This document shows, piece by piece, positions 43,063 to 62,353 of a stretch of DNA of 64,000 bases. Made by a program: the position numbers and the translations under genes. Position 1 is the first letter of the stretch. Each line of letters starts with the position of its first letter. The notes below the pieces were generated by a model. The model was not told the origin of the DNA. It was given only the letters and a program-made list of their open reading frames with translations, and did no database searches. The DNA comes from Patescibacteria group bacterium (GTDB taxonomy: Bacteria > Patescibacteriota > Patescibacteriia > S139-126 > S139-133), in assembly GCA_049604715.1 (NCBI GenBank), contig JBMYTV010000002.1, forward strand, positions 56,455 through 120,454. Reading direction: 5' to 3'.

Positions 43063-44298
43063 ATGATACGAAAGTTACTAAAAAAGAATACTATATGGAT
43101 TGGCGCATCAGAAACATGGCTTAAAGTCATGTCTTTTATAGCTATTCTTATGATTGCGCGTATATATGGCGATACTATCTTTGGCCAAGTGTCATATGTA
43201 ATGGCTTACTTGCAACTATTTCAGATAATATTTGATTTTGGGCTACATATGATTATGACACGTGAGATCAGCCAAAATATCAAAAAGACAGAAGACATAC
43301 TAGCAAAATACTTTGGCTTTAAAGTACTGGTCGGCCTAATAATAGTAGCAGCACTTCTTGCGAGTATCCCCTTTTTACAAAAAGACACAGCAGTCATCAC
43401 GTATCTATTGGCAGCTAGTGGATTTATGCTATTTATGTCGATCAATCAGCTCCTGCGGGGTGTATTTGTAGCCCATGAAAAGTTCTCATTAGATGCATTT
43501 TCTAAAATATTTGAGTCTACGTTTTTTATTATCTTGGTGAGCGTTACTTTGTATTACAAAAACGTTAATCTAACCATGCTCAGCTACTCTATAGCAGCTA
43601 CTGTTGGTTTTGTACTTCTCTACTACCTCTTGCGTAAACAATCTATTAAACTACGCGCACGTATCTCAAAAAAGGATATAAAAGAGGTATTTGCACAGGC
43701 ATGGCCGCTTGCATTGGCTGGTTTATTTGTAATCGTATACTTTCGAATAGACACTATTATGCTTTCGTACATGAAAGGTGATGAAGTGACCGGATGGTAT
43801 AATGCTGCTTATCATTTTATGTACACATTCATTTTCATTCCAGGCTTTATCATGACATCATTGTTTCCTAAGCTTTCACAATTTGCACTCAATAATAAGA
43901 AGAAGTTTAAAAAATTGTATGTTCAAAGCCTTCTTTTGATAACTGCAGTTGCAACTGTGTTCATGGGAACACTTTGGTTTGCAGCAGAACCAATAATTTT
44001 ACAATTCTATGGCGCACAGTATAGCCCTGCTGTGCCTGTGCTCAAGATCTTGACCATTGCTGTATTCTTGTCATATGTGTCACACGTTTGGTTATTTGCC
44101 CTGACTGCTATCAAAAAGCAACATATGTACACCTGGGCTGTTGGAGCAGGCATGATCATCAACGTGATACTTAATATTATTTTTATCCCCCAATACTCAC
44201 TCTATGCTGCTGCATGGACCACTGTAGCAACTGAAATAATTACTGGATCAGTTATTTTTGGCTCATGTCAGTATTTTATATTAAAATTACGCAAGTGA
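43063..44298 (+). CDS. Wzx-like polysaccharide flippase (MOP superfamily)
   Basis: About 12 TM helices. MIRKLLKKNTIWIGASETWLKV is a typical Wzx N-terminus. The track start at 43006 adds 19 aa that overlap the divergent gene. Confidence 0.7.
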   Translation: MIRKLLKKNTIWIGASETWLKVMSFIAILMIARIYGDTIFGQVSYVMAYLQLFQIIFDFGLHMIMTREISQNIKKTEDILAKYFGFKVLVGLIIVAALLASIPFLQKDTAVITYLLAASGFMLFMSINQLLRGVFVAHEKFSLDAFSKIFESTFFIILVSVTLYYKNVNLTMLSYSIAATVGFVLLYYLLRKQSIKLRARISKKDIKEVFAQAWPLALAGLFVIVYFRIDTIMLSYMKGDEVTGWYNAAYHFMYTFIFIPGFIMTSLFPKLSQFALNNKKKFKKLYVQSLLLITAVATVFMGTLWFAAEPIILQFYGAQYSPAVPVLKILTIAVFLSYVSHVWLFALTAIKKQHMYTWAVGAGMIINVILNIIFIPQYSLYAAAWTTVATEIITGSVIFGSCQYFILKLRK

Positions 44299-44310
44299 TA
44301 TACTAAAAAT

Positions 44311-45303
44311 ATGAGCGACTACCCACATGTAAGCATTATCATACTTCACTGGAAAAACCTTGCTGATACACGGCATTGTCTTTCAGCAGTACGTCAGCTT
44401 ACCTATCCTTCATATGACGTATATGTAGTACTAAATGGCGCTAGTAGAGAGGATAGTATCAGTATCCACAATCTATATGATCAGTATGATAATTTTACTA
44501 TCATTGATGAAGAGGAAAATATCGGCTTTGCTGAAGGAAACAATGTTGCAATACGACTTGCACTTAAACAATCAAATCCAGAGTATGTCTTTGCTCTTAA
44601 TAATGATACAGAAATAGAACCTCATGCTCTTGATGAAGCTGTAGCCAAGGCACAAGAGGGTTTTGACGAAGTTCAATTACTTATGATGAACTTTGAGAAT
44701 CGCAGTCTTATTGATAAAGCCGGAATACGCATAGGCAAAAGCTTACTTCCCTTTGATATAAAAGAACTAGGAACTGAAAGTCCTATTGTATGCGCCAGCG
44801 CTGGAGCAGCCCTTTACTCAAGCAAACTCCTTGAAACAATAGCCATAAAGAGACAGCACGCAAGTGGCTTTGCCAATACCGTAGAAAAAGAATATTTTGA
44901 TAGTGACTTTTTTGCCTATGCTGAGGATCTTGATCTTGGACTACGCGCACGTCTTGCTGGATTTGACTGCGCGCTAGCTGAAAAGGCTATTGTGTATCAC
45001 AAGGGATCTGCCTCAACCAGCACAATGTCAGATTTTGCTATTTACCATACATTCCGCAACCTTATTTGGACTTATATAAAAAACACACCCCGAGCATGGA
45101 TGATACGTTTTGGTGTGTTTTTTATCATTGGTCAACTCGGAATACTCTATAAAAACTTTACACGCGGACAGCACAAACAAATATTACGTGCCTGGAAAGA
45201 TGCAAAACGTGACAAAAGTGTCATGCAATTAAAAAGAGCGTATATTCAGAAACAAAGTTCCAACGCTCTTGATTATTCACTGGTTGATAAAACACTTTTT
45301 TAA
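44311..45303 (+). CDS. family-2 glycosyltransferase
   Basis: VSIIILHWKN...YDVYVVLNGAS and DxD-region motifs of the GT-A fold. 330 aa. Confidence 0.8.
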   Translation: MSDYPHVSIIILHWKNLADTRHCLSAVRQLTYPSYDVYVVLNGASREDSISIHNLYDQYDNFTIIDEEENIGFAEGNNVAIRLALKQSNPEYVFALNNDTEIEPHALDEAVAKAQEGFDEVQLLMMNFENRSLIDKAGIRIGKSLLPFDIKELGTESPIVCASAGAALYSSKLLETIAIKRQHASGFANTVEKEYFDSDFFAYAEDLDLGLRARLAGFDCALAEKAIVYHKGSASTSTMSDFAIYHTFRNLIWTYIKNTPRAWMIRFGVFFIIGQLGILYKNFTRGQHKQILRAWKDAKRDKSVMQLKRAYIQKQSSNALDYSLVDKTLF

Positions 45304-45602
45304 GCAAAAAACCACGTCACTGCAGTGACTATTGTGGCTGAGATAGCCAAAGCTGACAGAAAAACTGTGCGGCTTTTTTTGTAGTATATATTGTACTTCT
45401 CCTTTTGAAGCCACATAAACCCAGCCTCAGGGATTACAAAAACAGAAACAATATGCCCGAAAGCACAAAGTAGTGACAGAGCTAGTCCATACCAGCCTAT
45501 ATACTGATACGAAATAATACCCATACTTCCGTGCCCAACTACAAAAAAGCCCCACACGACCTTGGTCAGTGGATGCATCTTCCGTTTTTTTAATTTATTC
45601 AA
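45300..45602 (-). CDS. small hypothetical membrane protein
   Basis: 100 aa with 3 hydrophobic helices. Confidence 0.3.
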   Translation of the reverse strand: MNKLKKRKMHPLTKVVWGFFVVGHGSMGIISYQYIGWYGLALSLLCAFGHIVSVFVIPEAGFMWLQKEKYNIYYKKSRTVFLSALAISATIVTAVTWFFA

Positions 45603-45618
45603 CGTAGTGCCCTTTCTT

Positions 45619-47871
45619 TTATTTATAATGCCAAATGTACACGTCGCCTATTATATTCTCAGGTTCTCCCAAAATGTCAACCGTCTCCTTATATACACGG
45701 TCGTTTATCCACTTATCTTCGGTCATATAATAGCAGCTCGTGTCATTAGTTGCTTTTAGCGCCCAATCAAGTAGCTCTGTGTCTGGGAACTGACTCATAG
45801 TCTCAAAAATCTTCACTCTCTCTGGCTGAGAGTACTCAAAACCAACTGGAAAGCCGCCCCCTATAATCTCACGTCCCGAAACTGCCTCTACTGCCAAAAG
45901 TGGCCATGTATTTGCCAAAACACAGTAAAACTCGTCATTTTTATCTATACGCTCCCATACATACTGCGCAGATAAGTGTTCATCAGTGGTCACTACCTGA
46001 AGCAACGGACCTGATGCATAAGTGGATGATGCTACAAACGATACCATCACTACAACGAGTAAAACTTTTGTAGCCCAAGGCAGGTATCTCTTTTTTTCCA
46101 AAAAGTAAAAAATTCCTAAAGTCAAAAATACTGACAAGCAAAGTACTATAGTTACATCAAGCCGACGAGCTAAAATATGGTTACCATCAAGAAAGTACCA
46201 GGATAGAATATAATTTCCAAGCAGCACGCCTGTTAGTATCATGAAAAACCGAGGTACGATCTGCTGTTTTAAATGCTTTACTACTCTAAATCCAAGAGCT
46301 ATAAGTCCCCAAGCAAGAATAGTGAAAAATAATGGCCACAAGTTAAACTGCAAAAATGACACTGGCGCATGGTCGGCTCTTGTCTGGTTAAATAAAAAGT
46401 TGCCTTGGTCTACATGCCCTGTATGTGGCAAGTATGCAACAATTCCTGACAAATACCCAAAGGCATCAGCTAAAGCAGAGAAAGCCATGCCAAAACTTGC
46501 TGTTGCTGCATTTAGCTCACCATATCCTTGTACAAGCTCTAGACCTGGTATAAAAAGTGTTGCTCCTATGGCAAATACTATAAGCAGTGCCTGCCATACA
46601 CGTTTTGTATGTGTATACTTCTTTTGCAGTGCAAGTAAAAAAACAAGCACACCGATCTCAAGAAGTAATAAAAAGTGCAGCACATATCCAAAAAAGAGCA
46701 AAAGTGTAAATACACTATTCCATACACCAAGAGATCGAGACGGGACCTGCAAAAATCTAAGCCAACCATAAAGCGCAAACAAAAATACTATATGACCAAG
46801 TGACAAGGGCAATGTAATAGCCCCAAACACCTGGAGAGGATAAAACAATATAGGCACAAAGGCAAAAAACAGCGCAAAATGCCTTCCGGGTCTGATCAAG
46901 CCAGCTATTTTATATAACAGAAGCGGTACAAACAATGACCACAAAATAAACACCAACCAAAAGTCTATATAAAAAATATCAATTTGCAAAGTTTCAGCCA
47001 ACAAAATAGTAATAGCCCATTGCTGAGAATATGATGTTTTGTTGCCACTCACAAAAACGGCAGGCACTTCTACTCCGGCAATGGTGGCCATTTCCCTATT
47101 GTCACCAAGCAGTGACGGCTGATACACCGCCCCAGTCATCACAAGTCGCTCTGATGCTAAATGCCGCCATTTGTCCCCACCAAAACCAGTTTCATAAACC
47201 ACAGGTAAGTATGCATGCAAGGCAAATGACTGGATAATAATAACTGCTAAAATAACTGCGCCTTTTCGTTTTGAAAATATAAACAACCCCGCAATAGCAG
47301 TTAGCAAGATGTATACATATACATAAAGCCTTGGTATCACATGCCAAGGTGACAATATGAACTCACCTGTCCTGCCTTCAAACAAAAACAACAAACCTAC
47401 AATAACAACTGGAACAAATAACAGCGCCAAATACTTAGGTACGCTATAAGTCATACGAGGAGATTTAGCAAGCTGAAGATCCTCGTCTGCTATGTCATAT
47501 TTTTGAACAACCGGAACATACTGCAAAGCCTTAGCAAGAGCACTTACTATGAAAAGTACAAGTATCAAACTGCCTGTTGTATACCTAAATAAAGAAATAG
47601 GTATAGCAAGAAAAAGACTTGTAATCATAAGCGTTCCAAAAGCCCCAAACATCAGCGACCATCCACGGCTCAAGTCAAATAGCACTGCCATAGCCCTTGC
47701 AAGCCATACAGACACTATAGAAAAATATATAGTCGTACAGATAATACCAAAAAAAGTACTTTCCAGGCTCGTGTTAAAGAAAATACCGACTATACTAAGC
47801 AGTACCAATGTTACATACGCATAGTACTGATCTTTTTCTATACTACGAACAAAAGAATATAGTGTATTCAT
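45619..47871 (-). CDS. large polytopic membrane protein, GT-C-like glycosyltransferase candidate (YfhO/ArnT-like)
   Basis: 750 aa with more than 15 predicted TM helices and a C-terminal soluble domain. It co-occurs with a GtrA-family protein and two DPM1-like GT2 genes. A hairpin terminator lies downstream at about 47897..47925. Confidence 0.4.
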   Translation of the reverse strand: MNTLYSFVRSIEKDQYYAYVTLVLLSIVGIFFNTSLESTFFGIICTTIYFSIVSVWLARAMAVLFDLSRGWSLMFGAFGTLMITSLFLAIPISLFRYTTGSLILVLFIVSALAKALQYVPVVQKYDIADEDLQLAKSPRMTYSVPKYLALLFVPVVIVGLLFLFEGRTGEFILSPWHVIPRLYVYVYILLTAIAGLFIFSKRKGAVILAVIIIQSFALHAYLPVVYETGFGGDKWRHLASERLVMTGAVYQPSLLGDNREMATIAGVEVPAVFVSGNKTSYSQQWAITILLAETLQIDIFYIDFWLVFILWSLFVPLLLYKIAGLIRPGRHFALFFAFVPILFYPLQVFGAITLPLSLGHIVFLFALYGWLRFLQVPSRSLGVWNSVFTLLLFFGYVLHFLLLLEIGVLVFLLALQKKYTHTKRVWQALLIVFAIGATLFIPGLELVQGYGELNAATASFGMAFSALADAFGYLSGIVAYLPHTGHVDQGNFLFNQTRADHAPVSFLQFNLWPLFFTILAWGLIALGFRVVKHLKQQIVPRFFMILTGVLLGNYILSWYFLDGNHILARRLDVTIVLCLSVFLTLGIFYFLEKKRYLPWATKVLLVVVMVSFVASSTYASGPLLQVVTTDEHLSAQYVWERIDKNDEFYCVLANTWPLLAVEAVSGREIIGGGFPVGFEYSQPERVKIFETMSQFPDTELLDWALKATNDTSCYYMTEDKWINDRVYKETVDILGEPENIIGDVYIWHYK

Positions 47872-47957
47872 AAGTGTATTGTATCATAAAAGGTTGAGAA
47901 CCACCGCGTTTGCGATGGTTCTCGAAATTGTTTTTATTAAAAAAGGATTTACCGGTC

Positions 47958-48671
47958 TCAGGCTGATTGCTTTACTACCTTAGGCACAAACATCTTATGC
48001 GGCACGATATATACGTGCTCATTCGTACCTGGAATTTCAAAACTCTCAATAACTTTGCCATCGTATTTGGACATATCACCCATGCGAATAGAGCGCCCTG
48101 CGGTTCTTCTTCCATTGGGCCAATAATTGACAATCAGTGACTGGCCAAACGCTGGATGGGTGCAACGTTGAATCTGTACACTAACCACTCCACGTTCACC
48201 TACACAGGTCTTCCCGTTCATCTCATCCCTTTTAAATCCGAAGAAGTGGCGCTTTACTACGACGGGCTTACCATGCCTATCGTGAGCCACATAACCCTGG
48301 CGGTAAAAACTTCTTTGGATCTTTACCATCCCCGGGATATTTTCTTGAAATGCAGGGAATTCAAGGATGAACTCCTCATAGTTTATGAGGTCGTCATTTG
48401 CAGCTGCAATTGCAGCCTCTACTTGGTCTCTGGACATCACATCCACATAACTGATTGGATGTTTGTATCCTTTGAACGGGAGCGGATTGGGCGGCTCGGT
48501 CCACTTGGGAAGCTTCTTTACAAAAAGCGAACCGGTGAACAAAACTTCGTAGTTAGCCATCTGCCGGGGATCAAAGTAGGGACTTTCTTCATTATTTTTT
48601 TCCGCCGAAATAGCTGCGACCAGCATTTCTTCAGTGGTCTCTTTAAATGGTGCAAAAATCACATGTTTCAT
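47958..48671 (-). CDS. hypothetical soluble protein
   Basis: 237-aa ORF with no recognised motif. Confidence 0.4.
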   Translation of the reverse strand: MKHVIFAPFKETTEEMLVAAISAEKNNEESPYFDPRQMANYEVLFTGSLFVKKLPKWTEPPNPLPFKGYKHPISYVDVMSRDQVEAAIAAANDDLINYEEFILEFPAFQENIPGMVKIQRSFYRQGYVAHDRHGKPVVVKRHFFGFKRDEMNGKTCVGERGVVSVQIQRCTHPAFGQSLIVNYWPNGRRTAGRSIRMGDMSKYDGKVIESFEIPGTNEHVYIVPHKMFVPKVVKQSA

Positions 48672-48805
48672 GTGACCTCCTAATCCTTTTTTAGTGAGTA
48701 TTATATTTTTTTGGTGCTGCGAAAATACTTCATATAATACTACAAATTACAGAAAATGTCAATATGTGACATTTTTATTGTACTTTTCCCTTATATTAGC
48801 CTAAA

Positions 48806-50851: not shown

Positions 50852-51882
50852 ACTATAAAATTTTTAACAATACTAAAGTAAATTCTAAAAATTGGATTGT
50901 ATACAAAACGCAGCGCAAATGACTTAATACCATCAAACTTAAGACTTGTGGTCATCACTCGCATTATTTCTTTATCTGACATTGTCCTTATCTGACGAGT
51001 ATGACTACGCTCTTTGATAATATGAAAAATACTTAGTATAAATCCGCCATAGCTTTTTATCTTCCACATACCCCAACCTGAGATAAATGCATAAAAAATC
51101 ATAGCAACTTCAGTTGCAAGTAATGCTGGTAGCAACAAACAAATAGTCCAAAGTCGATACCTTGAAGCAAGTACTAGTAGGCGATTACGTTCTGCATAAT
51201 AAAACTTTTTGCCTCCAAGGGTAAAAGTGTGATCATGAAATACAACACTCTGACTGGCAAGCCTAACCCTAAAGCCTGCCAAGCGAGCCCGCCATGAATA
51301 ATCTACATCTTCGTGGTACATAAACAAATACTCGTCAAGTAAACCAATTCGCTCTAATACACTTCGCTTGATAAGCATACTAGCACCTGATGCAACTGGC
51401 ACATCTCTATCCTCAGTATAATCACTACTCAAGTGCTTGTATCCGCCTGACCATGAAAAACCAAGCGGATGCAGTGGATTGCCAATAGTATCAACACGAA
51501 ACGCCTGCTGCATGAACAAGATCTTACTTTGCACTATACCAACATACGGATCTTCATCAGCAGTAACTACAAGATGCTCAAGCCAAGTATCACGCGGCTT
51601 TGTATCATCATTCAGAAGAACAACTGCATCATACCCACGCTCTAGCGCATACATAATACCAAGGTTATTACCCTTGGCAAATCCTAAATTTCTTTTCTGT
51701 GGCAAAAGCAGTACATCTGAAAAGTCCTTGGATACAATGTCTACAGTTGCATCGCTTGATGCATTATCAACAACCATTACGTCGTATTTGTCCTTGGCGT
51801 AGCTCTGAGAATAAACAGACCGCAAGCAGGTTGCGATGCGATCTTGAGCATTATAGGTAACTATGATAACGATAATTCGCAT
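50848..51882 (-). CDS. family-2 glycosyltransferase
   Basis: IIVIIVTYNAQDRIATCLRSV...DVMVVDNASSDAT. 344 aa. Confidence 0.8.
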   Translation of the reverse strand: MRIIVIIVTYNAQDRIATCLRSVYSQSYAKDKYDVMVVDNASSDATVDIVSKDFSDVLLLPQKRNLGFAKGNNLGIMYALERGYDAVVLLNDDTKPRDTWLEHLVVTADEDPYVGIVQSKILFMQQAFRVDTIGNPLHPLGFSWSGGYKHLSSDYTEDRDVPVASGASMLIKRSVLERIGLLDEYLFMYHEDVDYSWRARLAGFRVRLASQSVVFHDHTFTLGGKKFYYAERNRLLVLASRYRLWTICLLLPALLATEVAMIFYAFISGWGMWKIKSYGGFILSIFHIIKERSHTRQIRTMSDKEIMRVMTTSLKFDGIKSFALRFVYNPIFRIYFSIVKNFIV

Positions 51883-53926: not shown

Positions 53927-54637
53927 CTATTTAAAGCGTTTGCGTAATTGAAATGTTGTTTTGAGCATTCGGAGTGATGTTTGAACGAGTTTGTATTTGG
54001 TTGTTATAAAAGTGGATGCTTTATTTTCTTCCCAATATGTTGGAACTTCAGTAATTTGATAATTATGCTGTTTACAAAGTAGCAAAAGCTCAATATCAAA
54101 TGCCATGTTGTTTACACTCAAGTCAGGTAATATTTTTTTAATGACATCCTGCTTAAATACTTTTGCCCCGCACTGAGTATCTGCATAAGGTAGCTCTACA
54201 ATAAGACGAACCAAAAACCTAAACCCATATCCCGCAATCCGGCGGAACCATGATACTCTGTTTGCTATTTCAGCACCCTCTGCATACCGCGACGCAATTG
54301 TACCATCTACATTTTCAAGTGCTTGCAGTAACTTGTTAAACTCTCGAGCTGGTGTAGAGCCATCAGCATCAACATATCCAACATATTCATTTCTGATTGA
54401 GGTAAATCCCAGACGAACTGCCCACCCTTTTCCATAACTCTCTTTATGCACTTCATATGTAATCCTCTCAGGATACTTTGCTTGCCAGTCTTTGACCACA
54501 CTTTCTGTATTATCAGAACACCCGTTGAGTACAACGTGAAACAGTACCGAATCAGCCATTGTGGTTAGGTAGTCCTCAAACATTGGCCCTATCCGCTCTG
54601 CTTCATTGTATGCTGGTACCACTAGTGTTACATCCAT
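53927..54637 (-). CDS. GT2, polyprenyl-phosphate sugar synthase-like (second copy)
   Basis: MDVTLVVPAYNEAERI...VVLNGCSDNT. 236 aa. Confidence 0.75.
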   Translation of the reverse strand: MDVTLVVPAYNEAERIGPMFEDYLTTMADSVLFHVVLNGCSDNTESVVKDWQAKYPERITYEVHKESYGKGWAVRLGFTSIRNEYVGYVDADGSTPAREFNKLLQALENVDGTIASRYAEGAEIANRVSWFRRIAGYGFRFLVRLIVELPYADTQCGAKVFKQDVIKKILPDLSVNNMAFDIELLLLCKQHNYQITEVPTYWEENKASTFITTKYKLVQTSLRMLKTTFQLRKRFK

Positions 54638-54641
54638 ATGG

Positions 54642-55097
54642 TTATTCTGGGTTTATCATACCTTTTTCCGTGCGAAATGACCAGTATTTATGAGCAGTAA
54701 AATTCCAAAATGTACCAATACCCATGGCTATAACTTTGGCTAAAATATCATAGAGCTTAAACTCTACGACACCTATATACAAAATTGACTGAACCAGTGC
54801 TATGTAAATCAATGCAACAGTCCAAAACTTCAAATACTGCTTGGCTATATTCTTTGATTTGTTTCTGAATGTGTAGTGTTTATTTAGAAAAAAAGATGAG
54901 GTTGTGGCAATAATAAAAGCAACAATATTTGCTCCCAAATAATTTGTTTGCCAAAAATCAAATGTACGTGTCAATCCAATGTAAATACTAAAATCAAGAA
55001 CAGCATTAGTAGCCCCAACTAATAAAAAAACAAACACTTCTCTACCAAGTGGAATATGTTTATCTACATAGTGTTGTATTTTATTAAATATTCTCAT
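54642..55097 (-). CDS. GtrA-family small membrane protein (lipid-linked sugar translocation)
   Basis: 151 aa with 4 TM helices. LVGATNAVLDFSIYIGL is GtrA-like. Confidence 0.7.
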   Translation of the reverse strand: MRIFNKIQHYVDKHIPLGREVFVFLLVGATNAVLDFSIYIGLTRTFDFWQTNYLGANIVAFIIATTSSFFLNKHYTFRNKSKNIAKQYLKFWTVALIYIALVQSILYIGVVEFKLYDILAKVIAMGIGTFWNFTAHKYWSFRTEKGMINPE

Positions 55098-56983
55098 TAG
55101 TCATACACCAATGATCCCACGCGTACACCACCCGCAAAATTTGGGCTATACGCTTGGAGGGTTTGTTGTTTGTTTCCAAGCCAATCAAAAATACCAACCT
55201 CAGGCGCCATTCCAGCGCTATTTCCTACTACTACCTGTGTTAATCCATCACCATTCATATCAGTCGCCATAACAGTAAAGCCGCCCTTTATATTTTCTGG
55301 TGCTGCAAACCACTGACTAGCAATTGACCCATTTGGTGAAAAAATACGTATATGCGCTCCGCCATCTGCCGCTGGTGCAGTGATTATCTCAGATGAACCG
55401 TTTACGGCAATGTCACCAACTGCAACGTTTACACCACCGCGGAAGTTTTCATTGTACGCCATGAACTGACTTTGTACTGCACCTTGAGCATTAAATACTC
55501 TAACATGCGGACCGCCACCACTACCTGCTCCGGTTATAATTTCTGCAATTCCGTCCCCGTTAGTATCACCAACTGCAACGTTCACACCACCGCGAAATGC
55601 TGGATTATAAGCCATAAATTCATACTCAATAATACCATTCATATCAAAAACTCGAATAAGTGGAACATGATCATTTGTTGTCGCTGTGATGACTTCCACA
55701 AATCCGTCATTATCAACGTCACCACTTGCTGTACTAACACCGCCGCGGTAATACGACTCAAACGCAAACCACTGACTCAAAATATTTCCTTGATAATCAA
55801 GAACTCTAACATGCGGACCGCCTTGGCTGGCTGGTCCTGTGATCACGTATGACCTGTTTACTGCACTAGTTGGGTTACCACCAAGTGTAGCGTGTGCAGT
55901 TTCTAAACTAGCTTCAGCATTTACCACTCCAGATCCGACTTTGCCTTTAAACTCATTTTGCTGCAGAGCATCAATAGAATCGGATGAATTCACAATAATG
56001 TCACGAATCTGAGCAGGAGTAAGGCTAGGGTTTTTGGCTTTTATGAGAGCTGCTAAACCAGACACAACCGGGGCGGCCACTGATGTTCCACTCCAACCAC
56101 CGCCATAAGCCTCGCTAAATGAATCATTTTCAGGATCATAAACTTGTGTACCATAAAAAGAAACCCCAGGCGCAGCTACGTCAACACATTTTGATCCATA
56201 ATTTGAAAAATTAGTCAGAACATTAAACTGATCAAGTGCAGCTACACCAATAACCATGTTTTGAGCACCGTCATAACAAACAGGATACGCAGCATCAACT
56301 GCTAGATCCTTTGGCGCCTCACCTTCGTTACCAGATGCAGCAACCAGCACCACACCTTGGTTGTATGCTCTGGTGATTGCTTGTTCTAAATCAAAACTAT
56401 AATCACTCCCTACAAAACTTAAGTTAATAATATCTGCACCCTGTGCCACTGCATAGTCAATTGCACGAGCCACTTGAGACGCGTCACCATTACCTTGATT
56501 GTTTAGAACTTTAATAGGCATTATTTTAATCTGCCATGCCATTCCTGCTACACCAACACCATTGGCTCCTCGCGCACCAATAACCCCTGCTATGATTGTG
56601 CCGTGTTGCGCAGCCGAAAACTCAGCATCGGCAACATCAGGAATAACATTGTTATTGTTCTCCAAAAAATTCCATCCATAAAAATCATCCGTATAACCAT
56701 TACGATCATTGTCAATCTGATCATAAGGAATCTCTGATGTATTTACCCAAATATTATCTCGAAGATCTGGATGATTTATATCAACGCCTGTATCAAGTAC
56801 AGCAACTACAATATCATAGGAGCCTTGTGTATATTCCCATGCCCGTGGAGCTTTGATGTGTGGCAAATACCACTGTCTAAAAAAATCAGGGTCATTTGGA
56901 ACAATAGCAAAAGTAGGCTGTGCAATAACAAACAAGCCCAAGACAAATATGCTTAACCGTAAAAATATATTTTCTTTTTTCAT
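55097..56983 (-). CDS. secreted subtilisin-like serine protease (S8) with C-terminal FG-GAP/VCBS-type repeats
   Basis: Signal peptide, then the catalytic Asp (VAVLDTGVD), His (HGTIIAGVIGA) and Ser (GTSVAAPVVSGLAAL) motifs. The C-terminal repeats have the form GDxNGDG..E(V)I(T)...GGxHVR(V)F. Confidence 0.85.
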   Translation of the reverse strand: MKKENIFLRLSIFVLGLFVIAQPTFAIVPNDPDFFRQWYLPHIKAPRAWEYTQGSYDIVVAVLDTGVDINHPDLRDNIWVNTSEIPYDQIDNDRNGYTDDFYGWNFLENNNNVIPDVADAEFSAAQHGTIIAGVIGARGANGVGVAGMAWQIKIMPIKVLNNQGNGDASQVARAIDYAVAQGADIINLSFVGSDYSFDLEQAITRAYNQGVVLVAASGNEGEAPKDLAVDAAYPVCYDGAQNMVIGVAALDQFNVLTNFSNYGSKCVDVAAPGVSFYGTQVYDPENDSFSEAYGGGWSGTSVAAPVVSGLAALIKAKNPSLTPAQIRDIIVNSSDSIDALQQNEFKGKVGSGVVNAEASLETAHATLGGNPTSAVNRSYVITGPASQGGPHVRVLDYQGNILSQWFAFESYYRGGVSTASGDVDNDGFVEVITATTNDHVPLIRVFDMNGIIEYEFMAYNPAFRGGVNVAVGDTNGDGIAEIITGAGSGGGPHVRVFNAQGAVQSQFMAYNENFRGGVNVAVGDIAVNGSSEIITAPAADGGAHIRIFSPNGSIASQWFAAPENIKGGFTVMATDMNGDGLTQVVVGNSAGMAPEVGIFDWLGNKQQTLQAYSPNFAGGVRVGSLVYD

Positions 56984-57042
56984 ATGTATATAGTAGCAAA
57001 TTGTAGCTAAAACATAAACAAAAGTTTACGATTTGCTACAAG

Positions 57043-58704
57043 CTAAAGCAACCCTTGCTGCTTTAAATAATCACACACCATATCAACCGCCTCTGTGACA
57101 CTTGTCTCAGATGTATCAATACTGATCTCAGCACTATCAGGCTCTTCATAAGGGTCGTCAATGCCAGTCACATTTTGGATTAGTCCGGCCTCTGCTTTTG
57201 AATACAAACCTTTTACATCACGTTGCTTACATACCGCAAGGGGTGTTGCCACATGCACCTCAATGTATACACCATATGTTGAGATTAGTTCACGATTATA
57301 GTCACGCGACTGAGCATACGGTGCAATAGCAGCGCACAGCGCAATACCACCGTGACGTACGACCTCAGCTGCGACAAAGCCAATACGCTGCACATTTGTA
57401 TTTCTATCTTCTTTGGAAAATCCTAAACCTTTTGATAAATGTTGCCGGATAATATCTCCATCAAGGTACGTTATTGGCCGATGCTGAATCTCTAGAAGTC
57501 TAGTATGAAGAGCTTGTGCTATAGTGCTCTTACCTGCCCCAGAAAGTCCTGTGAAGAAAAGTGTAAATCCACGAACTGAATCCACATATCGTGATGACTG
57601 CAACTCATCAAGTACTTCAGGAAATGAAAACCATTCAGGAATTTGTTCGTTTTTCGCAAGCTTGTTTCTAAACTCTGTCCCTGAGATGTAAAGTGGTTTT
57701 GAATTTTCAGTTTGTTCGTGAGTAGAGATGTATTGTTTTGTATGACCATCATAAAAAAGTTCGGGTGCAGATATTACCTTTATACCAATTTCATCTGCAA
57801 ACTGCTGTACATACTCTTGTGCATCATACAACCCATAAAAAGGATTGCCATTACTATCCTTACCAGGTCCCGCATGATCTCTACCAATAATAAAATGAGT
57901 ACATCCATAGTTTTTTCTTATAAGCGCATGCCACAAGGCCTCACGCGGCCCACCCATTCGCATAGCAAGCGGTAGCAAGCTTAACATAGTAAACTCCGGA
58001 GCATATTTTTCATGCACATGTTGATATGCACGTACACGTGTAATAGCATCTATATCACCTGTTTTAGTCTCACCAACAGCCGGATGGATGAGTACTGTCC
58101 CACCATGCTCCTCTGATGCTCGTTTGATCACTTCAAAATGTGCACGATGCAGAGGATTGCGAGTTTGAAAGCCAACCAATGTATCTATGTTATTCTGAAG
58201 TTTGTATTCATGTATCTCCTCTGGGGTTTTATAAAGGGACTGGAATAATTCATGCGATGGGATTGCAATTCTCTCAATAATACCACCAATGTATACGGGA
58301 TGAGTTTCAGATAAAATATATGAAACCCCGAAATGACTTTCATCGTCAGTTCCATACACTTGTTTAACCTCGTGTTCTTTATCAGGAACAAAAACTGACT
58401 CAACTAACATTAGCGCCAGTAAATTACCATATGCATCACAAAGCGCGACTTCTTGCCCTTCTGTATATGTGTGGTTTTCAGGAACATCAAGAACAACCGG
58501 CATTGGCCATACTGATCCATTTGGAAGTCTGGCATTATCCACAACTGACTTATACTCATCTTCAGTCATAAATCCAGTGAGCGGCGCAAATCCACCATTC
58601 AAAATAAGCTCCAAATCACTTAACTGGCGTTTGGTCAACCTGATATGCGGTATATGTAAAGCGCGCTGTTTTAGCGCCTCATATGTAGTCTTTTTTGTAT
58701 TCAT
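57043..58704 (-). CDS. bifunctional sulfate adenylyltransferase (ATP sulfurylase) / adenylylsulfate kinase (PAPS synthase)
   Basis: N-terminal ATP-sulfurylase motifs QTRNPLHRAHFE and GRDHAGPG. C-terminal APS kinase P-loop FFTGLSGAGKSTIAQAL. 553 aa. Confidence 0.9.
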   Translation of the reverse strand: MNTKKTTYEALKQRALHIPHIRLTKRQLSDLELILNGGFAPLTGFMTEDEYKSVVDNARLPNGSVWPMPVVLDVPENHTYTEGQEVALCDAYGNLLALMLVESVFVPDKEHEVKQVYGTDDESHFGVSYILSETHPVYIGGIIERIAIPSHELFQSLYKTPEEIHEYKLQNNIDTLVGFQTRNPLHRAHFEVIKRASEEHGGTVLIHPAVGETKTGDIDAITRVRAYQHVHEKYAPEFTMLSLLPLAMRMGGPREALWHALIRKNYGCTHFIIGRDHAGPGKDSNGNPFYGLYDAQEYVQQFADEIGIKVISAPELFYDGHTKQYISTHEQTENSKPLYISGTEFRNKLAKNEQIPEWFSFPEVLDELQSSRYVDSVRGFTLFFTGLSGAGKSTIAQALHTRLLEIQHRPITYLDGDIIRQHLSKGLGFSKEDRNTNVQRIGFVAAEVVRHGGIALCAAIAPYAQSRDYNRELISTYGVYIEVHVATPLAVCKQRDVKGLYSKAEAGLIQNVTGIDDPYEEPDSAEISIDTSETSVTEAVDMVCDYLKQQGLL

Positions 58705-58846
58705 AACCCTTTAATAATAACAGATATACTGATCTAATAAAATAAATGCCTGGGGGTATTGATTTTTTTCAAGATTTATGTTTTAATATGAGGTCAAATC
58801 TTATATTTAGCTATTTTTTTAGGCTTAACCCTAGTATAATAGTGAT

Positions 58847-60202
58847 ATGACTATAAAAACACGTAAAATACTAATGATTCTTGGTGATATAGGCATCTTT
58901 TATGCCTCTCTTTACCTTGCATTGACTATTCGTACTCAAACCCTTGTCACGCAAGGTGTGTGGGCTGATCATTGGCCTACTTTTACTGTTGTGTTTGGTT
59001 TATGGATTATTGGGCTCTACATAATTGATTTTTATGACCTTTCATCTGCTAAAAATGACCGAAAATTTATCATCCGTGTTGGCGTTGCTGCAGCTGTACT
59101 AACTACACTTGCTGTGTTGTATTTCTATACCATACCAAACCTCCGCATTGCACCAAAGACTATTTTGATCATTGATGTTTTGATTACACTGGCACTTCTT
59201 ATTGGATGGCGCCTAGCATTCAACAAACAAGCAAAGAACGCATCTCACTCACTAATTGCTATTGGTATTGGTTCTTCTGGTCAATCATTGCTTCAAGAAA
59301 TTCAGAACACTCCTCAGTGGGGGTACAAAACAGTAGCAATTTTTGATGAAAATGCTAAACCTGAATTTTCACCTATACCTACCTTTACTACACTTGATAA
59401 TCTGTCTCAGATTATTTCAGATACAGACACAAAGACTATTGTAGTTGATGACAAGCTGTACACATCAGAGAGATATATCAACACACTCTTTTCTATTATC
59501 AGCCCTGATATCACTATCATTCCCCTTACACTTTTATACGAACAAATTGCACAAAAAATTCCTGTACAAAGCATTTCAAAATCATGGTTTTTAGAAAATA
59601 TTAGCAAACATGACCATGACATTCATGACAAGATACAACGTTTGGTTGATATTGTGTTCTCACTATTCCTGCTTGTCATTACCTTACCTCTCTATCCATT
59701 AATCATACTTGCTATCAAGCTTGATTCACCTGGTCCAGCATTTTATAGACAAGAACGGCTAGGATATTTAGGCAAACCATTTATGATGATTAAATTCCGC
59801 ACAATGGTTGAAAAAGCGGAGAAAAATGGAGCGCAGTGGGCACAAAAAAATGACCCCCGTATAACTCGAGTAGGCAAATGGATGCGCAAATCCCGCATTG
59901 ATGAGCTCCCGCAAATGATGAATATTTTAAAAGGTGAAATGAGCTTTATAGGACCTCGTGCTGAAAGACAGGCATTTATTGAGCAGCTTGAACAAGAGCT
60001 TCCATTTTACAAACAAAGACTACTTGTCAAACCAGGAGCAAGTGGCTGGGCACAGGTCAATTATAAGTATGGCGCTAGTGTTGAAGATGCTTTAGAAAAA
60101 TTACAATACGATTTATACTACGTAAAAAATCGTAACTGGTATTTGGATGCCAGCATTGTACTCAAAACTATCAAAATTATGAGTAGCCTTGGAGGGCAAT
60201 AA
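58847..60202 (+). CDS. polyprenyl-phosphate sugar-1-phosphate transferase (WbaP/PglC 'bacterial sugar transferase' family)
   Basis: 451 aa with N-terminal TM helices and C-terminal Bac_transf motifs (MMIKFRTM...DELPQMMNILKGEMSFIGPRAE). Confidence 0.85.
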   Translation: MTIKTRKILMILGDIGIFYASLYLALTIRTQTLVTQGVWADHWPTFTVVFGLWIIGLYIIDFYDLSSAKNDRKFIIRVGVAAAVLTTLAVLYFYTIPNLRIAPKTILIIDVLITLALLIGWRLAFNKQAKNASHSLIAIGIGSSGQSLLQEIQNTPQWGYKTVAIFDENAKPEFSPIPTFTTLDNLSQIISDTDTKTIVVDDKLYTSERYINTLFSIISPDITIIPLTLLYEQIAQKIPVQSISKSWFLENISKHDHDIHDKIQRLVDIVFSLFLLVITLPLYPLIILAIKLDSPGPAFYRQERLGYLGKPFMMIKFRTMVEKAEKNGAQWAQKNDPRITRVGKWMRKSRIDELPQMMNILKGEMSFIGPRAERQAFIEQLEQELPFYKQRLLVKPGASGWAQVNYKYGASVEDALEKLQYDLYYVKNRNWYLDASIVLKTIKIMSSLGGQ

Positions 60203-60204
60203 AC

Positions 60205-61455
60205 ATGGTTGAAAAAATAAAAGTCATGCTATTCAAACTTCTTAGGAAGTCAGAAAAATACACCAAAACAGACATGGTGTATTTAGCCAAAGGCGGCTTT
60301 TGGCTAGGTATGAGCAAAATGGTGAGCGCTGGCTCTGCATTTTTGCTAGCTCTGGCATTTGCTAACCTGCTTCCTCAAGAAGAGTATGGTACTTACAAAT
60401 TTATTTTCTCAATTGTCAGCATACTTATTATAAGTTCAATGCCTGGTATTAATACTGCTCTTACACAGGCAGTTGCCAGAGGCTTTGAGGGGTCAATACT
60501 AACAAGTGTTAAAACAAAAATAAAATGGTCAACACTTGGTGCGCTTGGCAGTTTAGCTATAGCTGCATATTACTATATAAACAATGACCCAACACTTACA
60601 TATGCGTTTTTAATAGCTGCGATTTTCTTACCTTTCATTGACTCGTTCAATGTCTATGAACCATATCTGCAAGGAAGAAAAATGTTCAAGCAGTCAGCTA
60701 TCTTAAGCTCTATCCTGCAGAGCACCACAGTACTGTCTATGATAGCGTTTTTGTTCTTCACCAACAATGTAATTCTTGTTGTTGCAGCACACTTTGTGAT
60801 GTACACGTTGATCAAGTACATTTTCTACCTGTTTGTTACAAAAAAGTACAAACCAAATAATAAGATTGACCCTGGGTCAGTATCCTATGGCAGACATCTT
60901 TCATTCATTAATGTTATAGGCACAATTGGCGGACAAATTGACAAAATTCTATTGTGGCATTTCTTAGGTGCGGCATCACTGGCTGTGTACGCATTTGCCT
61001 TAGCTCCAGTTGATCAATTCCGTAGCATGCTTAAGTCTCTAAATATCCTTGCGTTTCCAAAACTAGCAGCGCAAGATACCGCAGTACTCAAAAAAACAAT
61101 TCCACAAAAAATGCTAAAGCTGTTTTTACTGCTCATTATACCTGTTACAGCATATATTCTTTTGGCACCGTACCTGTATAAAATATTTTTCCCTTTATAT
61201 GCAGAATCAGTCGAATACACCAGATGGTATGCGCTTTTTTTACTGAAATTCCCTACCAATCTTATGGGACAAACCCTCACTGCCAAAAAACAACAAAGAA
61301 CTCAATATAAATTAAAAATTATTAACCTTATTACAAAAATAACACTGTTTTTAGTTCTTACACCTATATTTGGCATCCATGGCGCTATTGCTACACTTCT
61401 AATCGCCCCAGTTATCAATAGCATTTTGGTTGCGTATCATTTCTATAAACTATGA
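60205..61455 (+). CDS. Wzx-like polysaccharide flippase (second copy)
   Basis: 416 aa with about 12 TM helices and polysaccharide-biosynthesis-protein-like topology. Confidence 0.7.
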   Translation: MVEKIKVMLFKLLRKSEKYTKTDMVYLAKGGFWLGMSKMVSAGSAFLLALAFANLLPQEEYGTYKFIFSIVSILIISSMPGINTALTQAVARGFEGSILTSVKTKIKWSTLGALGSLAIAAYYYINNDPTLTYAFLIAAIFLPFIDSFNVYEPYLQGRKMFKQSAILSSILQSTTVLSMIAFLFFTNNVILVVAAHFVMYTLIKYIFYLFVTKKYKPNNKIDPGSVSYGRHLSFINVIGTIGGQIDKILLWHFLGAASLAVYAFALAPVDQFRSMLKSLNILAFPKLAAQDTAVLKKTIPQKMLKLFLLLIIPVTAYILLAPYLYKIFFPLYAESVEYTRWYALFLLKFPTNLMGQTLTAKKQQRTQYKLKIINLITKITLFLVLTPIFGIHGAIATLLIAPVINSILVAYHFYKL

Positions 61456-62353
61456 GCAATATAACGAACTTTGATATTGACTTTATTGGCATTGGAACAG
61501 GTCATGCTGGCACGAGTTGGGTATTTACATGTATTAAAGAACACCCAGCAGTCTGTGATGCAAAGAAAAAAGAAACAAAGTTTTTCCGTGATCATTATCA
61601 TAAGGGCATTGAATATTATGCATCCCTCTTTTCATCATGTGATGACACACTTTTAAAAGGTGAATTTACACCTAGTTATATGTATGATGAGACAATTGCT
61701 GAACGCATTCATGCACACTTTCCTAAAGCTAAGATTATTGTTTGTCTCAGACATCCGTATGAACGTTTGCGGTCTGCGTATTACTTTAATAAACAACGCG
61801 CAGTTCTTTCGTTTGAAAATTTGAATAAAAAGATTCAATATGATATTGAAGCTGCTACCGGCACTGGCAGTGAACTCATTCGACAAGGAAACTACTACTC
61901 TTTTTTGAAGAAATATTATAAATTATTTGGAGCTTCCCAAATCCATATAATTTATTACGAAGATATAAAAAATAATCCTGAAAAAGTTATTGAAACCGTA
62001 TATAAATTCTTGTCTATCGACCCAAAGTACACCCCTTCTTCTCTTTCAAAAAAATCAATGTTACTGCACGTAACAAACGCTATATTGCTAGTCTCCCAAA
62101 AATTAAAACAAAGGTAAGTACATGGTTGCTACAAAGTTCTGTTGGCAAAGTCATCTTGAATATTGCGCGTACTACAGGTGTCACATCAATTGTAAACCGC
62201 ATACTGAAGCACAATATACGTCATTCAAACCTAGATCCCATACATAAAGAAATGTTATCTGATACCACAAAAAAATCATTACGCCAAATATATGCGAATG
62301 ATATTAAAGACTTAGAATCACTTTTGAAAAATAAAACTCCCTGGAACTTATAA
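61452..62353 (+). pseudogene. PAPS-dependent sulfotransferase interrupted by a -1/+2 frameshift in an A7 homopolymer (61452..62117 plus 62126..62353)
   Basis: The N-terminal part has a 5'-PSB-like IGTGHAGTSW motif and a 3'-PB-like RHPYERLRSAYY motif. The second ORF continues the same protein in another frame. Adding one A to the run at 62048..62054 joins them into a roughly 296-aa ORF (…SLSKKINVTARNKRYIASLPKIK…). Confidence 0.55.

Follow-up and report, generated by a model that had tools for sequence, protein, structure and literature searches.

The question raised by this locus is how its many sugar-related genes are divided between functions. An earlier note on the same DNA had assigned them to two pathways, one Wzx-dependent and one passing lipid-linked monosaccharides to a polytopic GT-C-like protein. 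Within the window (the whole analysed stretch, 64,000 nt of contig JBMYTV010000002.1), the region as a whole is best explained, with a probability of roughly 55%, as a mosaic envelope-glycan locus on a Patescibacteria (Paceibacteria/Parcubacteria-type) chromosome, arranged around a lineage-wide, previously unannotated GT-C. The type of cluster is ordinary; the GT-C family is new.

Gene content, determined by ORF calling and searches with Pfam and NCBIfam profiles, is summarized in Table 1. The parts list of the earlier note proved right, while its division of labour and its chosen analogues did not stand; within the same coordinates there are also a DUF2304 protein, an S8 peptidase, an ATP sulfurylase/APS kinase, a sulfotransferase and two orphans, which its entry on the locus had not listed. 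Over most of the minus-strand run the gaps between genes are −4 to +16 nt, and the order of the core genes was found again in dozens of other Patescibacteria genomes, so the clustering is not due to chance. This confirms a real cell-envelope sugar-polymer gene cluster of an ultrasmall Patescibacteria bacterium. The left edge of the unit, as judged by synteny, lies at 41777, about 1.3 kb beyond the previously assumed start at 43063. An ATG of the first Wzx gene falls exactly on the latter position; use of the upstream ATG (43006) would cause overlap with the divergent gene.

Table 1. Genes and selected protein segments of the locus, in window coordinates
Feature	Coordinates	Strand	Remarks
132-aa small membrane protein	41777..42175	-	~4 TM (TM scan); directly after CBM-like gene
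276-aa CBM-like protein	42177..43007	-	N-terminal TM anchor (helix 5-33), extracytoplasmic beta-jelly-roll
First MOP/Wzx flippase	43063-44298	+	Polysacc_synt PF01943, 125 bits
330-aa GT2	44311-45303	+	PF00535; ordinary GT-A type, one C-terminal hydrophobic helix
100-aa 2-TM orphan	45300..45602	-	directly after GT-C gene
750-aa GT-C-fold glycosyltransferase	45619..47871	-	~17 TM helices, N-in, C-terminal extracytoplasmic domain
GT-C residues 619-750	45622..46017	-	C-terminal alpha/beta globular domain; invariant C650 and C713; motif N654-T-W-P-L-L
GT-C residues 476-511	46339..46446	-	long external loop; low model confidence; conserved motif Q489-G-N491...Q496
GT-C E227-H237	47161..47193	-	motif ETGFGGDKWRH; start of large external loop, residues 226-298
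237-aa soluble orphan	47958..48671	-	inserted between GT4 and GT-C genes
378-aa GT4	48806-49942	-	PF00534, 140 bits; GT-B fold, retaining
302-aa GalE-like SDR	49943-50851	-	UDP-hexose or UDP-pentose 4-epimerase; PDB 4zrm
344-aa GT2	50848-51882	-	ordinary GT-A; weakly similar to rhamnosyltransferase, GlfT1, MftF
119-aa DUF2304 membrane protein	51882..52241	-	PF10066, 79.9 bits
221-aa TM-less GT2	52243..52908	-	GacI/WpsA/PpgS-like polyprenyl-phosphate sugar synthase; motif D85-A-D87-G-Q89
335-aa UDP-glucuronate decarboxylase (UDP-xylose synthase)-like SDR	52911-53918	-	human UXS1 2b69
236-aa TM-less GT2	53927..54637	-	second DPM1-like polyprenyl-phosphate sugar synthase; motif D90-A-D92
151-aa GtrA/DPMS-TM family membrane protein	54642..55097	-	PF04138, 86.8 bits
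628-aa S8 subtilase	55097..56983	-	secreted or anchored; C-terminal FG-GAP repeats; PF00082, 186 bits
553-aa ATP sulfurylase/APS kinase	57043..58704	-	bifunctional, PAPS synthesis; NF004040, 759.5 bits (cut-off 669 exceeded)
451-aa phosphoglycosyltransferase	58847..60202	+	polytopic, WbaP/WcaJ class; Bac_transf PF02397, 221 bits
416-aa second MOP/Wzx flippase	60205..61455	+	Polysacc_synt PF01943, 73 bits
221-aa sulfotransferase	61452..62117	+	PAPS-dependent, carbohydrate type; PF00685, 67.7 bits

The predicted model of the 750-aa protein has a GT-C fold, which argues for a glycosyltransferase and not for a non-GT transporter. Comparison with YfhO, ArnT and PMT profiles, proposed previously as a check, gave no match to any of them; neither were a GtrC-type profile match, an STT3 Pfam match or the WWDYG motif found. 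On the modelled structure, the protein is a member of a large, unannotated, Patescibacteria-restricted GT-C glycosyltransferase family, whose closest structural relatives appear to be oligosaccharyltransferases, and for this reason a monosaccharide is not necessarily what this enzyme transfers. D233, R236 and H237 are invariant in 46/46 family members and belong to a motif at the start of the first large external loop, which the helix map and the positive-inside rule would place outside the membrane; they likely form the active site, with D233 as a candidate catalytic residue. The loop of residues 476-511 (pLDDT < 50 at residues 482-488) may occupy a place like that of the mobile EL5 loop in oligosaccharyltransferases, and the cysteine pair C650/C713 of the C-terminal domain is unchanged across the family.

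Both small DPM1-like GT2s, which carry DxD motifs and are devoid of TM helices in the TM scan, resemble polyprenyl-phosphate sugar synthases (PpgS, AglJ, DPMS, ArnC) most closely, in line with the lipid-carrier role suggested for them before. The best NCBIfam match of the 221-aa enzyme was PpgS (NF058614, 175 bits, E 1.4e-51), and since 370 bits would be needed to pass as an equivalog, the protein is not a PpgS orthologue; its top PDB matches were the P. furiosus DPMS (5mlz) and ArnC. The 236-aa GT2 matched the AglJ, PpgS and Dol-P-hexose transferase profiles, with the same DPMS (E 3.5e-10) and ArnC as top PDB matches. Each has a membrane protein gene beside it. Downstream of the 221-aa GT2 gene, after a gap of 1 nt, comes the DUF2304 gene, whose product would be a GacJ/WpsB/Rv3632-type activator and anchor of this TM-less enzyme, by analogy with GacJ, WpsB and Rv3632, which activate GacI, WpsA and PpgS, respectively (bioRxiv 10.1101/180810; PMC10821137). 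The GtrA gene is located 4 nt from that of the 236-aa GT2, and together they look like a split DPMS; the same pair was found in loci L005 and L006.

The calls made earlier for the precursor enzymes also hold: the best PDB match of the GalE-like protein was UDP-glucose 4-epimerase (E 3.5e-76), and the UXS-like protein matched human UXS1 with E ~1e-76 and about 262 bits, the runner-up reaching 84 bits. The 344-aa GT2 had generic GT2s as its only matches.

The locus was compared with species-level loci of 66 other Patescibacteria genomes (raw counts, kinship ignored, denominators being evaluable loci). The genes that accompany that of the GT-C encode the GT4, the 344-aa GT2, the CBM-like protein with its membrane anchor and a small membrane protein. 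Its most constant neighbour is the GT4 gene, present immediately upstream in 40/53 loci, often with overlapping reading frames, and this adjacency is kept down to ~30-35% GT-C identity. The 344-aa GT2 gene was found less than 7 kb upstream in 26/38 loci, and the CBM-like gene, a conserved downstream partner whose beta-jelly-roll resembles carbohydrate-binding modules, in 26/42. In the relatives, the place of the 132-aa protein is taken by a conserved 60-78-aa 2-TM protein (motif LLLiiEDxxPGFVSFW); the profile of this small family matched the N-terminal half of the 132-aa protein weakly (13.5 bits), and phmmer matches were obtained in L001 and L005-L007. One clade adds the GT2+DUF2304 pair, the 330-aa GT2 and the first Wzx to the companions of the GT-C gene. 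The GT2+DUF2304 pair occurs within 7 kb of the GT-C gene in only 13/38 relatives; where it is present, the 330-aa GT2 was found in 9/9 loci and an adjoining first Wzx homologue in 6/9, compared with 1/18 for each where the pair is missing.

The remaining genes behave differently. The phosphoglycosyltransferase (also TIGR03025, 362 bits, above the cut-off of 295), predicted to initiate a polyprenyl-diphosphate-linked glycan, was absent from the GT-C neighbourhood (0/15 to 0/21 evaluable relatives). Together with GtrA and the 236-aa GT2 it is found near GT-C only in the closest relatives (the phosphoglycosyltransferase in L005 and L006 only), and no homologue of the PAPS synthase, the sulfotransferase (best PDB matches: heparan sulfate 3-O-sulfotransferases and NDST) or the second Wzx was detected in any relative's locus. 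Each of these genes, those of the GtrA+GT2 pair among them, is accessory or confined to this genome. The subtilase gene, co-oriented with the locus, occupies the same locus end in L003, L004, L005, L006, L014, L029, L041 and L070. As for the orphans, the 100-aa protein has no family match (Pfam, NCBIfam and further profiles) and no homologue among the small ORFs downstream of the relatives' GT-C genes, and the 237-aa protein has no Pfam, NCBIfam or PHROG match and is absent from 47/47 relatives with enough flank. The latter, flanked by the region's best promoter-like site (48762-48734) and strongest terminator-like hairpin (47923-47896), is probably not a part of the glycan system.

As for donors, acceptor, order of steps and roles of subunits, we infer the following core route. 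UDP-sugars would be supplied by the UXS-like and GalE-like enzymes. On the cytoplasmic side, polyprenyl monophosphate would be charged with a sugar by the 221-aa GT2, for which the DUF2304 protein would serve as membrane anchor and activator. The 344-aa GT2, the GT4 and the 330-aa GT2 would probably lengthen this lipid-linked sugar into a short oligosaccharide; alternatively, it would be used as a monosaccharide. After flipping by the first Wzx, the GT-C enzyme would pass the glycan to an extracytoplasmic acceptor, most likely a wall-linked glycopolymer, with the CBM-like protein and the small TM protein as likely accessory subunits. The 236-aa GT2 and GtrA may provide a further polyprenyl-P-sugar, and a separate, genome-specific accessory route (phosphoglycosyltransferase, second Wzx, sulfotransferase and PAPS synthase) may yield a polyprenyl-PP-linked sulfated unit. 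Several observations count against the core route: a minority of relatives (the 13/38 given above) have the GT2+DUF2304 pair near the GT-C gene; a Buchananbacteria-type clade has its GT-C gene away from any glycosyltransferase gene; PglB and STT3, the nearest structural relatives of the GT-C, use diphosphate-linked donors; the locus encodes two polyprenyl-P-sugar synthases but only one GT-C; and a strong terminator-like hairpin sits just upstream of the GT-C gene.

The partition made in the earlier note, in which the phosphoglycosyltransferase, the GT4, the ordinary GT2s and both Wzx proteins build a polyprenyl-PP repeat unit while the GT-C adds single sugars from the two DPM1-like GT2s, can draw on the presence of the components of both routes, on two lipid-P-sugar synthases that would fit decoration reactions, on a GtrA protein typical of such systems, and on the fact that monosaccharides are what the majority of known three- and four-component systems transfer (bioRxiv 10.1101/180810; PMC10821137, discussion). 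We nevertheless consider it unlikely: the occurrence of the GT4, the 344-aa and 330-aa GT2s and the first Wzx follows that of the GT-C and the GT2+DUF2304 pair and not that of the phosphoglycosyltransferase, and the GT4 gene is usually contiguous with or overlapping that of the GT-C. Moreover, no Wzy polymerase, Wzz chain-length regulator or ligase was detected in the locus with Pfam profiles, which means that this locus does not encode a complete Wzx route; within the window there is no Wzy-like polytopic protein and only one GT-C candidate.

In another reading, the GT-C is an oligosaccharyltransferase-type enzyme derived from the STT3/AglB/PglB lineage that transfers a preassembled oligosaccharide en bloc to a protein, such as an S-layer, PEGA-domain or pilin protein, and the locus would then serve protein glycosylation; we regard this as distinctly improbable. 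It is very doubtful that there is no single system at all, the GT-C being an envelope enzyme of the housekeeping type that draws on a donor of its own (e.g., modifying peptidoglycan or lipid) and beside which variable glycan genes accumulated in a recombination-prone region. In the Buchananbacteria-type clade, the GT-C gene indeed lies among housekeeping genes, with TatD on one side, HIT/PEGA/MurA-like genes on the other and no glycosyltransferase in the vicinity, so its donor need not come from adjacent genes; the gene content around GT-C shifts stepwise with phylogenetic distance, and an unrelated orphan is inserted beside it here. Against this stand the tight packing of the genes in the window and the persistence of the GT4/GT-C adjacency in distant relatives.

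Among known systems, the core of the favoured mosaic locus is most like the streptococcal GacIJKL and the lactococcal WpsA/B–WpsG–WpsJ. Like the GacI/GacJ/GacK/GacL system (bioRxiv 10.1101/180810), it combines a GT2, a DUF2304 protein, a Wzx-family flippase and a GT-C, and its first Wzx co-varies with the GT2+DUF2304 pair across relatives; GacL, however, adds a single GlcNAc, whereas the module described here embeds three further cytoplasmic GTs. The lactococcal glycan is lengthened by cytoplasmic GTs while attached to C55-monophosphate, then carried across the membrane by a Wzx-type flippase and transferred by GT-C enzymes (PMC10821137); here, elongation on polyprenyl monophosphate would be the presumed counterpart. 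[quoted passage not shown] It differs in that the present GT-C belongs to another, unannotated sequence family, the window lacks rhamnan genes and a second GT-C, and no counterpart of the CBM-like or the small TM partner has been described.

These systems are better analogues than GtrABC or CsbB-GtcA-YfhO, to which the locus had been likened, because the small GT2s are TM-less and one is paired with the previously overlooked DUF2304 protein. A polyprenyl-P-sugar synthase, a GtrA-family protein and a polytopic GT-C are indeed shared, but GtrB and CsbB have TM helices of their own, and the GT-C matches neither YfhO nor GtrC-type profiles. Assignment of the GT-C to STT3/PglB/AglB is unsupported, as it lacks WWDYG and an STT3 Pfam match and has about four extra N-terminal TM helices. 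In the mycobacterial galactosamine pathway, PpgS (Rv3631) is stimulated by the DUF2304 protein Rv3632 (bioRxiv 10.1101/180810). Its GT-C (Rv3779) uses the PpgS product, and PpgS is the profile that the 221-aa GT2 matched best; the acceptor there is, in contrast, arabinogalactan. Arabinogalactan is not known from Patescibacteria. Finally, the UXS-like gene directly upstream of the 221-aa GT2 gene hints at a pentose or uronic-acid-derived sugar, and in the ArnA/ArnC/ArnE-F/ArnT pathway of lipid A aminoarabinose a UDP-glucuronate decarboxylase-type SDR similarly accompanies a DPM1-like GT2 (ArnC being among the PDB matches here), with a GT-C as the final transferase.

ORF calling revealed 19 tightly packed ORFs within the interval 43063-62353, which the earlier note had described as a glycan locus combining a Wzx-dependent and a lipid-linked monosaccharide pathway. 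Across most of the minus-strand run (58704-45300), the gaps between neighboring genes are from -4 to +16 nt. All the components listed in that note were recovered with Pfam and NCBIfam, including four GT2 genes (encoding proteins of 330, 344, 221, and 236 aa); the UDP-xylose-synthase-like and GalE-like assignments of the two SDR proteins were upheld, the former clearly so, and the ATG at 43063 proved preferable as the start of the first Wzx. The same interval also comprises genes not listed under that finding, i.e., those for a DUF2304 protein, an S8 peptidase, a PAPS synthase, a sulfotransferase, and two orphan genes. As for the extent of the locus, its content stands and its left boundary does not: the functional unit begins approximately 1.3 kb further left, since the genes of the conserved CBM-like partner and of the 132-aa protein, the apparent counterpart of a conserved small two-helix (2-TM) protein, are localized there. 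The features are gathered in the table below.

Features of the glycan locus and its flanks (window positions)
Feature	Position	Strand	Best support
132-aa protein	41777-42175	-	
276-aa CBM-like protein	42177-43007	-	
First MOP/Wzx	43063-44298	+	Polysacc_synt 125 bits
330-aa GT2	44311-45303	+	
100-aa TM protein	45300-45602	-	
750-aa GT-C protein	45619-47871	-	
237-aa soluble orphan	47958-48671	-	
GT4	48806-49942	-	
GalE-like SDR	49943-50851	-	4zrm, E 3.5e-76
344-aa GT2	50848-51882		
DUF2304 protein	51882-52241	-	PF10066 79.9 bits (cut-off 25.5)
221-aa GT2	52243-52908		
UDP-glucuronate-decarboxylase-like (UXS-like) SDR	52911-53918	-	human UXS1, E 1e-76, 262 bits; next match 84 bits
236-aa GT2	53927-54637		
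GtrA	54642-55097	-	PF04138 86.8 bits
S8 peptidase (subtilase) with FG-GAP repeats	55097-56983	-	
Bifunctional PAPS synthase	57043-58704	-	NF004040 759 bits
Polytopic phosphoglycosyltransferase (PGT)	58847-60202	+	Bac_transf 221 bits; TIGR03025 362 bits (cut-off 295)
Second MOP/Wzx	60205-61455	+	Polysacc_synt 73 bits
Carbohydrate-type sulfotransferase	61452-62117	+	
526-aa protein	62356-63936	-	PHROG "kinase", E 2.6e-5 (residues 312-420)

The Rfam search of the 40-64 kb part of the window indicated no RNA element, and the promoter scan was overall uninformative (62 sites versus 59 expected). The remainder of the window carries type IV pilus, peptidoglycan, DnaK/DnaJ, and ribosomal genes; the DNA is chromosomal. 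The regions 24828-35816 (plus strand) and 289-2835 (minus strand) comprise a type IV pilus cluster, encoding a PilB-like ATPase, a PilC-like protein, PilM/N/O, and an unusual, giant pilin-like protein (1146 aa, pilin methylation motif at the N-terminus), as well as a gene for a TrwB/TraG-like coupling ATPase.

The 750-aa polytopic protein showed no match in Pfam, NCBIfam, or the PDB sequences (phmmer), the YfhO, ArnT, and PMT profiles named in the earlier note included. A word-indexed search brought 60 homologues, all unnamed or "hypothetical", and the named sources were nearly always Patescibacteria. A profile of 46 members gave no match with PDB sequences at E<=10, and no Pfam family was matched consistently by these members at E<=5, the stray matches being one to PMT_2 and two to DUF6541. 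The exhaustive profile search enlarged the family to 1047 representative clusters at E<=1e-3 (312 at E<=1e-30), and the clusters looked up, those of distant members included, carried no names. One partial member, P0059 (501 aa, 29% identity), bears the label Candidatus Aenigmarchaeota archaeon, which could reflect a mis-binned contig or mean that DPANN archaea do have the family. The literature search (Patescibacteria with GT-C, or Candidate Phyla Radiation with oligosaccharyltransferase) returned nothing relevant.

The fold was more telling. The AlphaFold2 model built from the family alignment (pLDDT 93, pTM 0.93) had oligosaccharyltransferase catalytic subunits as all of its top 11 Foldseek matches (E 2.7e-5 to 4e-3, probability 1.00), followed by ALG9, ArnT, AftA, and ALG12. 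At the fold level it contains the conserved TM module of the GT-C superfamily, and its first large external loop carries a candidate catalytic acidic residue. These matches argue against a non-GT transporter, and the glycosyltransferase assignment of the earlier note thus holds. Based on sequence comparisons with Pfam, NCBIfam, and PDB, we consider this a new GT-C family, orphan in all three, large, and with almost all of its members in Patescibacteria.

The helix map combined with the positive-inside rule points to a protein of approximately 17 TM helices whose N-terminus lies inside. Three segments would then face outward, i.e., the loop of residues 226-298 with invariant D233, R236, H237, K278, Y281, and W285, another long loop, modelled with low confidence (residues 476-511), with a conserved QGN...Q, and the C-terminal domain (residues 619-750) with invariant C650 and C713. 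In shape, the family resembles the oligosaccharyltransferases, sharing with STT3/PglB/AglB the GT-C TM domain followed by a C-terminal mixed alpha/beta periplasmic domain, yet the sequence features defining those enzymes are missing: WWDYG-type motifs (WW[DE] or W[WYF]D[YFW]G) were found in 0/46 members, and the STT3 Pfam profile matched none of the 46 at E<=5.

For the comparative analysis, one genome per species was scanned, which yielded 66 loci with the GT-C gene, and all their ORFs were assigned to the best-matching window protein. The named groups were Patescibacteria (Paceibacter, Parcubacteria, Buchanan-, Falkow-, and Jacksonbacteria), and other loci were titled only "bacterium" or, as for many binchicken MAGs, "uncultured Gammaproteobacteria". 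The latter titles stand on Patescibacteria-type loci (L008-L010, L013, L018, L020, and others) and, given the gene content and synteny, look like placeholders or mislabels. The GT4 gene was located immediately upstream of the GT-C gene in 40 of 53 evaluable loci, the 344-aa GT2 within 7 kb of it in 26/38, and the gene of the 276-aa CBM-like protein downstream in 26/42, while the 221-aa GT2 and DUF2304 were found nearby in 13 and 14 of 38 loci, respectively. The 330-aa GT2 was present in all nine loci carrying the pair of 221-aa GT2 and DUF2304 versus 1/18 without it, and the first Wzx in 6/9 versus 1/18 (Fisher test, p = 0.0017, phylogeny not corrected for). Four homologue-bearing contigs share the core order UXS-like SDR, GalE-like SDR, 221-aa GT2, DUF2304, 344-aa GT2, GT4, and GT-C, followed on the opposite strand by the 330-aa GT2 and sometimes Wzx, and then by the 276-aa protein, a small TM protein, and HIT. 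Only the closest relatives encode the PGT, GtrA, and 236-aa GT2 near the GT-C gene (L005 and L006, and in part L029 and L057), and the relatives' loci contained no PAPS synthase, sulfotransferase, second Wzx, or 237-aa, 100-aa, and 526-aa genes.

In a Buchananbacteria-type clade, the GT-C gene lies between housekeeping genes, with MetRS, CvpA, and TatD on one side and HIT, PEGA, MurA-like, and S41 on the other. It follows that HIT, PEGA, S41, and L9 belong to the chromosomal backbone and that the glycan genes are lineage-specific additions surrounding the core GT-C gene. As candidate components of the system, HIT and PEGA were therefore discarded: they stay by the GT-C gene, alongside MurA-like and S41, even where glycan genes are absent. 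The order L9, S41 (CtpA-like) peptidase, PEGA-domain protein, HIT, and GT-C is kept in distant Patescibacteria (38240-41772 in the window; 12089-17830 in locus L049), also in those whose GT-C gene has no glycan genes beside it.

Several neighbors of the GT-C gene deserve separate description. Directly after the CBM-like gene, at least 17 Patescibacteria loci (e.g., L025, 3368-3586, and L026, 13112-13330) encode a so far unannotated 2-TM protein of 60-78 aa with the motif LLLiiEDxxPGFVSFW; the N-terminal half of the window 132-aa protein weakly matches this family, of which it appears, by sequence, to be a longer relative. The subtilase, which has an FG-GAP beta-propeller region at its C-terminus, is encoded within the glycan operon, and eight or more relatives have it at this locus end as well (L003, L004, L005, L006, L014, L029, L041, and L070). 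The 237-aa orphan, with no family match and no homologue in any related locus, separates the GT4 gene from the GT-C gene, two genes that abut or overlap in relatives. Since it is flanked by the best sigma-70-like site of the region (48762-48734, 11/12) and the strongest terminator-like hairpin (47923-47896, 12 bp, 7 GC), it has the look of an independent unit acquired recently. The 100-aa protein encoded after the GT-C gene was rejected as a conserved partner, having no homologue downstream of GT-C in relatives; its gene converges on that of the 330-aa GT2, and as the 3' ends of the two overlap by 4 nt, a terminator would not fit between them. PHROGs gave nothing for the orphan genes save the weak kinase match of the 526-aa protein, which also has sub-threshold NDK and LanKC matches, is unique to the source genome among the relatives' loci, and is probably the separate kinase-like finding of the earlier note.

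The two small GT2s were also analyzed as candidate lipid-carrier enzymes. The best NCBIfam model for the 221-aa GT2 was PpgS, polyprenyl-phospho-GalNAc synthase (E 1.4e-51; 175 bits, under the equivalog cut-off of 370), followed by AglJ and Dol-P-hexose transferase, and its best PDB matches were P. furiosus DPMS and ArnC; AglJ, PpgS, Dol-P-hexose transferase, DPMS, and ArnC were likewise the best matches of the 236-aa GT2. Both contain the DAD motif (DAD-G-Q in the 221-aa protein), and no TM helix was predicted in either. The 344-aa GT2, in contrast, had generic GT2 matches only. By their own matches, the small GT2s do not classify as ordinary nucleotide-sugar GT2s, and the DPM1-like label they had been given is retained; for the 221-aa GT2, the sequence evidence fits a putative TM-less polyprenyl-P-sugar synthase. 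In DPMS, a GtrA-type TM domain is fused to the catalytic domain, and the Pfam title of the GtrA family is "GtrA/DPMS, transmembrane domain". Here, a small membrane protein is encoded beside each TM-less synthase, GtrA by the 236-aa GT2 and DUF2304 by the 221-aa GT2, 1 nt past its gene. GacI, WpsA, and PpgS are bound and activated by the DUF2304 proteins GacJ, WpsB, and Rv3632 (bioRxiv 10.1101/180810; PMC10821137).

In the best-supported reading, the core resembles the lactococcal WpsA/B-WpsC..F-WpsG-WpsJ pathway or the simpler GacIJKL. The GacI-type GT2 with its DUF2304 activator would charge polyprenyl monophosphate, the sugar may then be lengthened on this carrier by cytoplasmic GTs, a Wzx-type flippase would move it outward, and the GT-C enzyme would transfer it to an external acceptor. 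The UXS-like gene directly upstream of the GT2-DUF2304 pair, together with a UDP-glucose dehydrogenase gene at that place in two relatives, hints that the sugar may derive from UDP-GlcA, as a pentose would. The shape of the GT-C protein and its near-constant pairing with GT4 fit oligosaccharide transfer as well as single-sugar transfer. A bolder proposal, which we regard as unlikely, is that the family (at least 1047 clusters, nearly all from Patescibacteria) constitutes a third bacterial lineage of STT3/AglB-derived oligosaccharyltransferases that lost the WWDYG sequon-binding motif and, aided by a dedicated, membrane-anchored CBM-like subunit and a small TM one, moves an oligosaccharide built on polyprenyl monophosphate en bloc to a protein or wall acceptor. 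Monophosphate-carrier chemistry is known for euryarchaeal AglB and lactococcal WpsJ. If true, this would be the central envelope-glycosylation enzyme for much of the Candidate Phyla Radiation.

The Wzx-dependent pathway of the earlier note was recovered in part: the initiating PGT and two Wzx proteins are encoded in the locus, but Wzy, the chain-length regulator, and the ligase are not. No ORF between 41.7 and 64 kb matched the Wzy_C, Wzz, or LCP Pfam families, and the window encodes no other proteins with at least five TM helices save the FtsW-like and MraY-like ones. Two relatives (L003, 1-1073, and L004, 1-611) carry near the locus, by the S8 peptidase gene, a gene that joins Wzy_C (O-antigen ligase/polymerase-like) and TPR repeats in one protein of approximately 770 aa, which has no window counterpart. 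The PGT, second Wzx, and sulfotransferase genes form a plus-strand operon, with the PAPS synthase gene divergent from it; together they would make up a second, diphosphate-linked and probably sulfated route specific to the source genome.

Patescibacteria attach to host cells through their envelope, about which, to our knowledge, almost no experimental knowledge exists. At the center of a conserved set (GT4, GT2, CBM-like anchor protein, and small TM protein), the locus has a member of a large unannotated GT-C family, and it offers concrete donor candidates, i.e., polyprenyl-P-sugar synthases of the GacI/GacJ and split-DPMS types, with a sulfation module in the source genome. Envelope glycosylation in Patescibacteria thereby becomes testable through heterologous expression, and about 1000 clusters of hypothetical proteins gain an annotation handle.

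Compared with known systems, the locus shares with GacIJKL and WpsA-B-G-J the adjoining GacJ/WpsB-type DUF2304 protein, a Wzx-type flippase, and a protein of GT-C fold, the likening to GacL/WpsJ being drawn by gene set and fold. The analogy with GtrABC and CsbB-GtcA-YfhO drawn in the earlier note holds for the four-helix GtrA/GtcA-family protein, but not for the GT2s, as GtrB and CsbB have C-terminal TM helices, unlike the small GT2s described here. As a system, the locus follows a well-known logic; its novelty is the GT-C family, with approximately 17 predicted TM helices, an oligosaccharyltransferase-like C-terminal domain without WWDYG, and two unannotated conserved partners.
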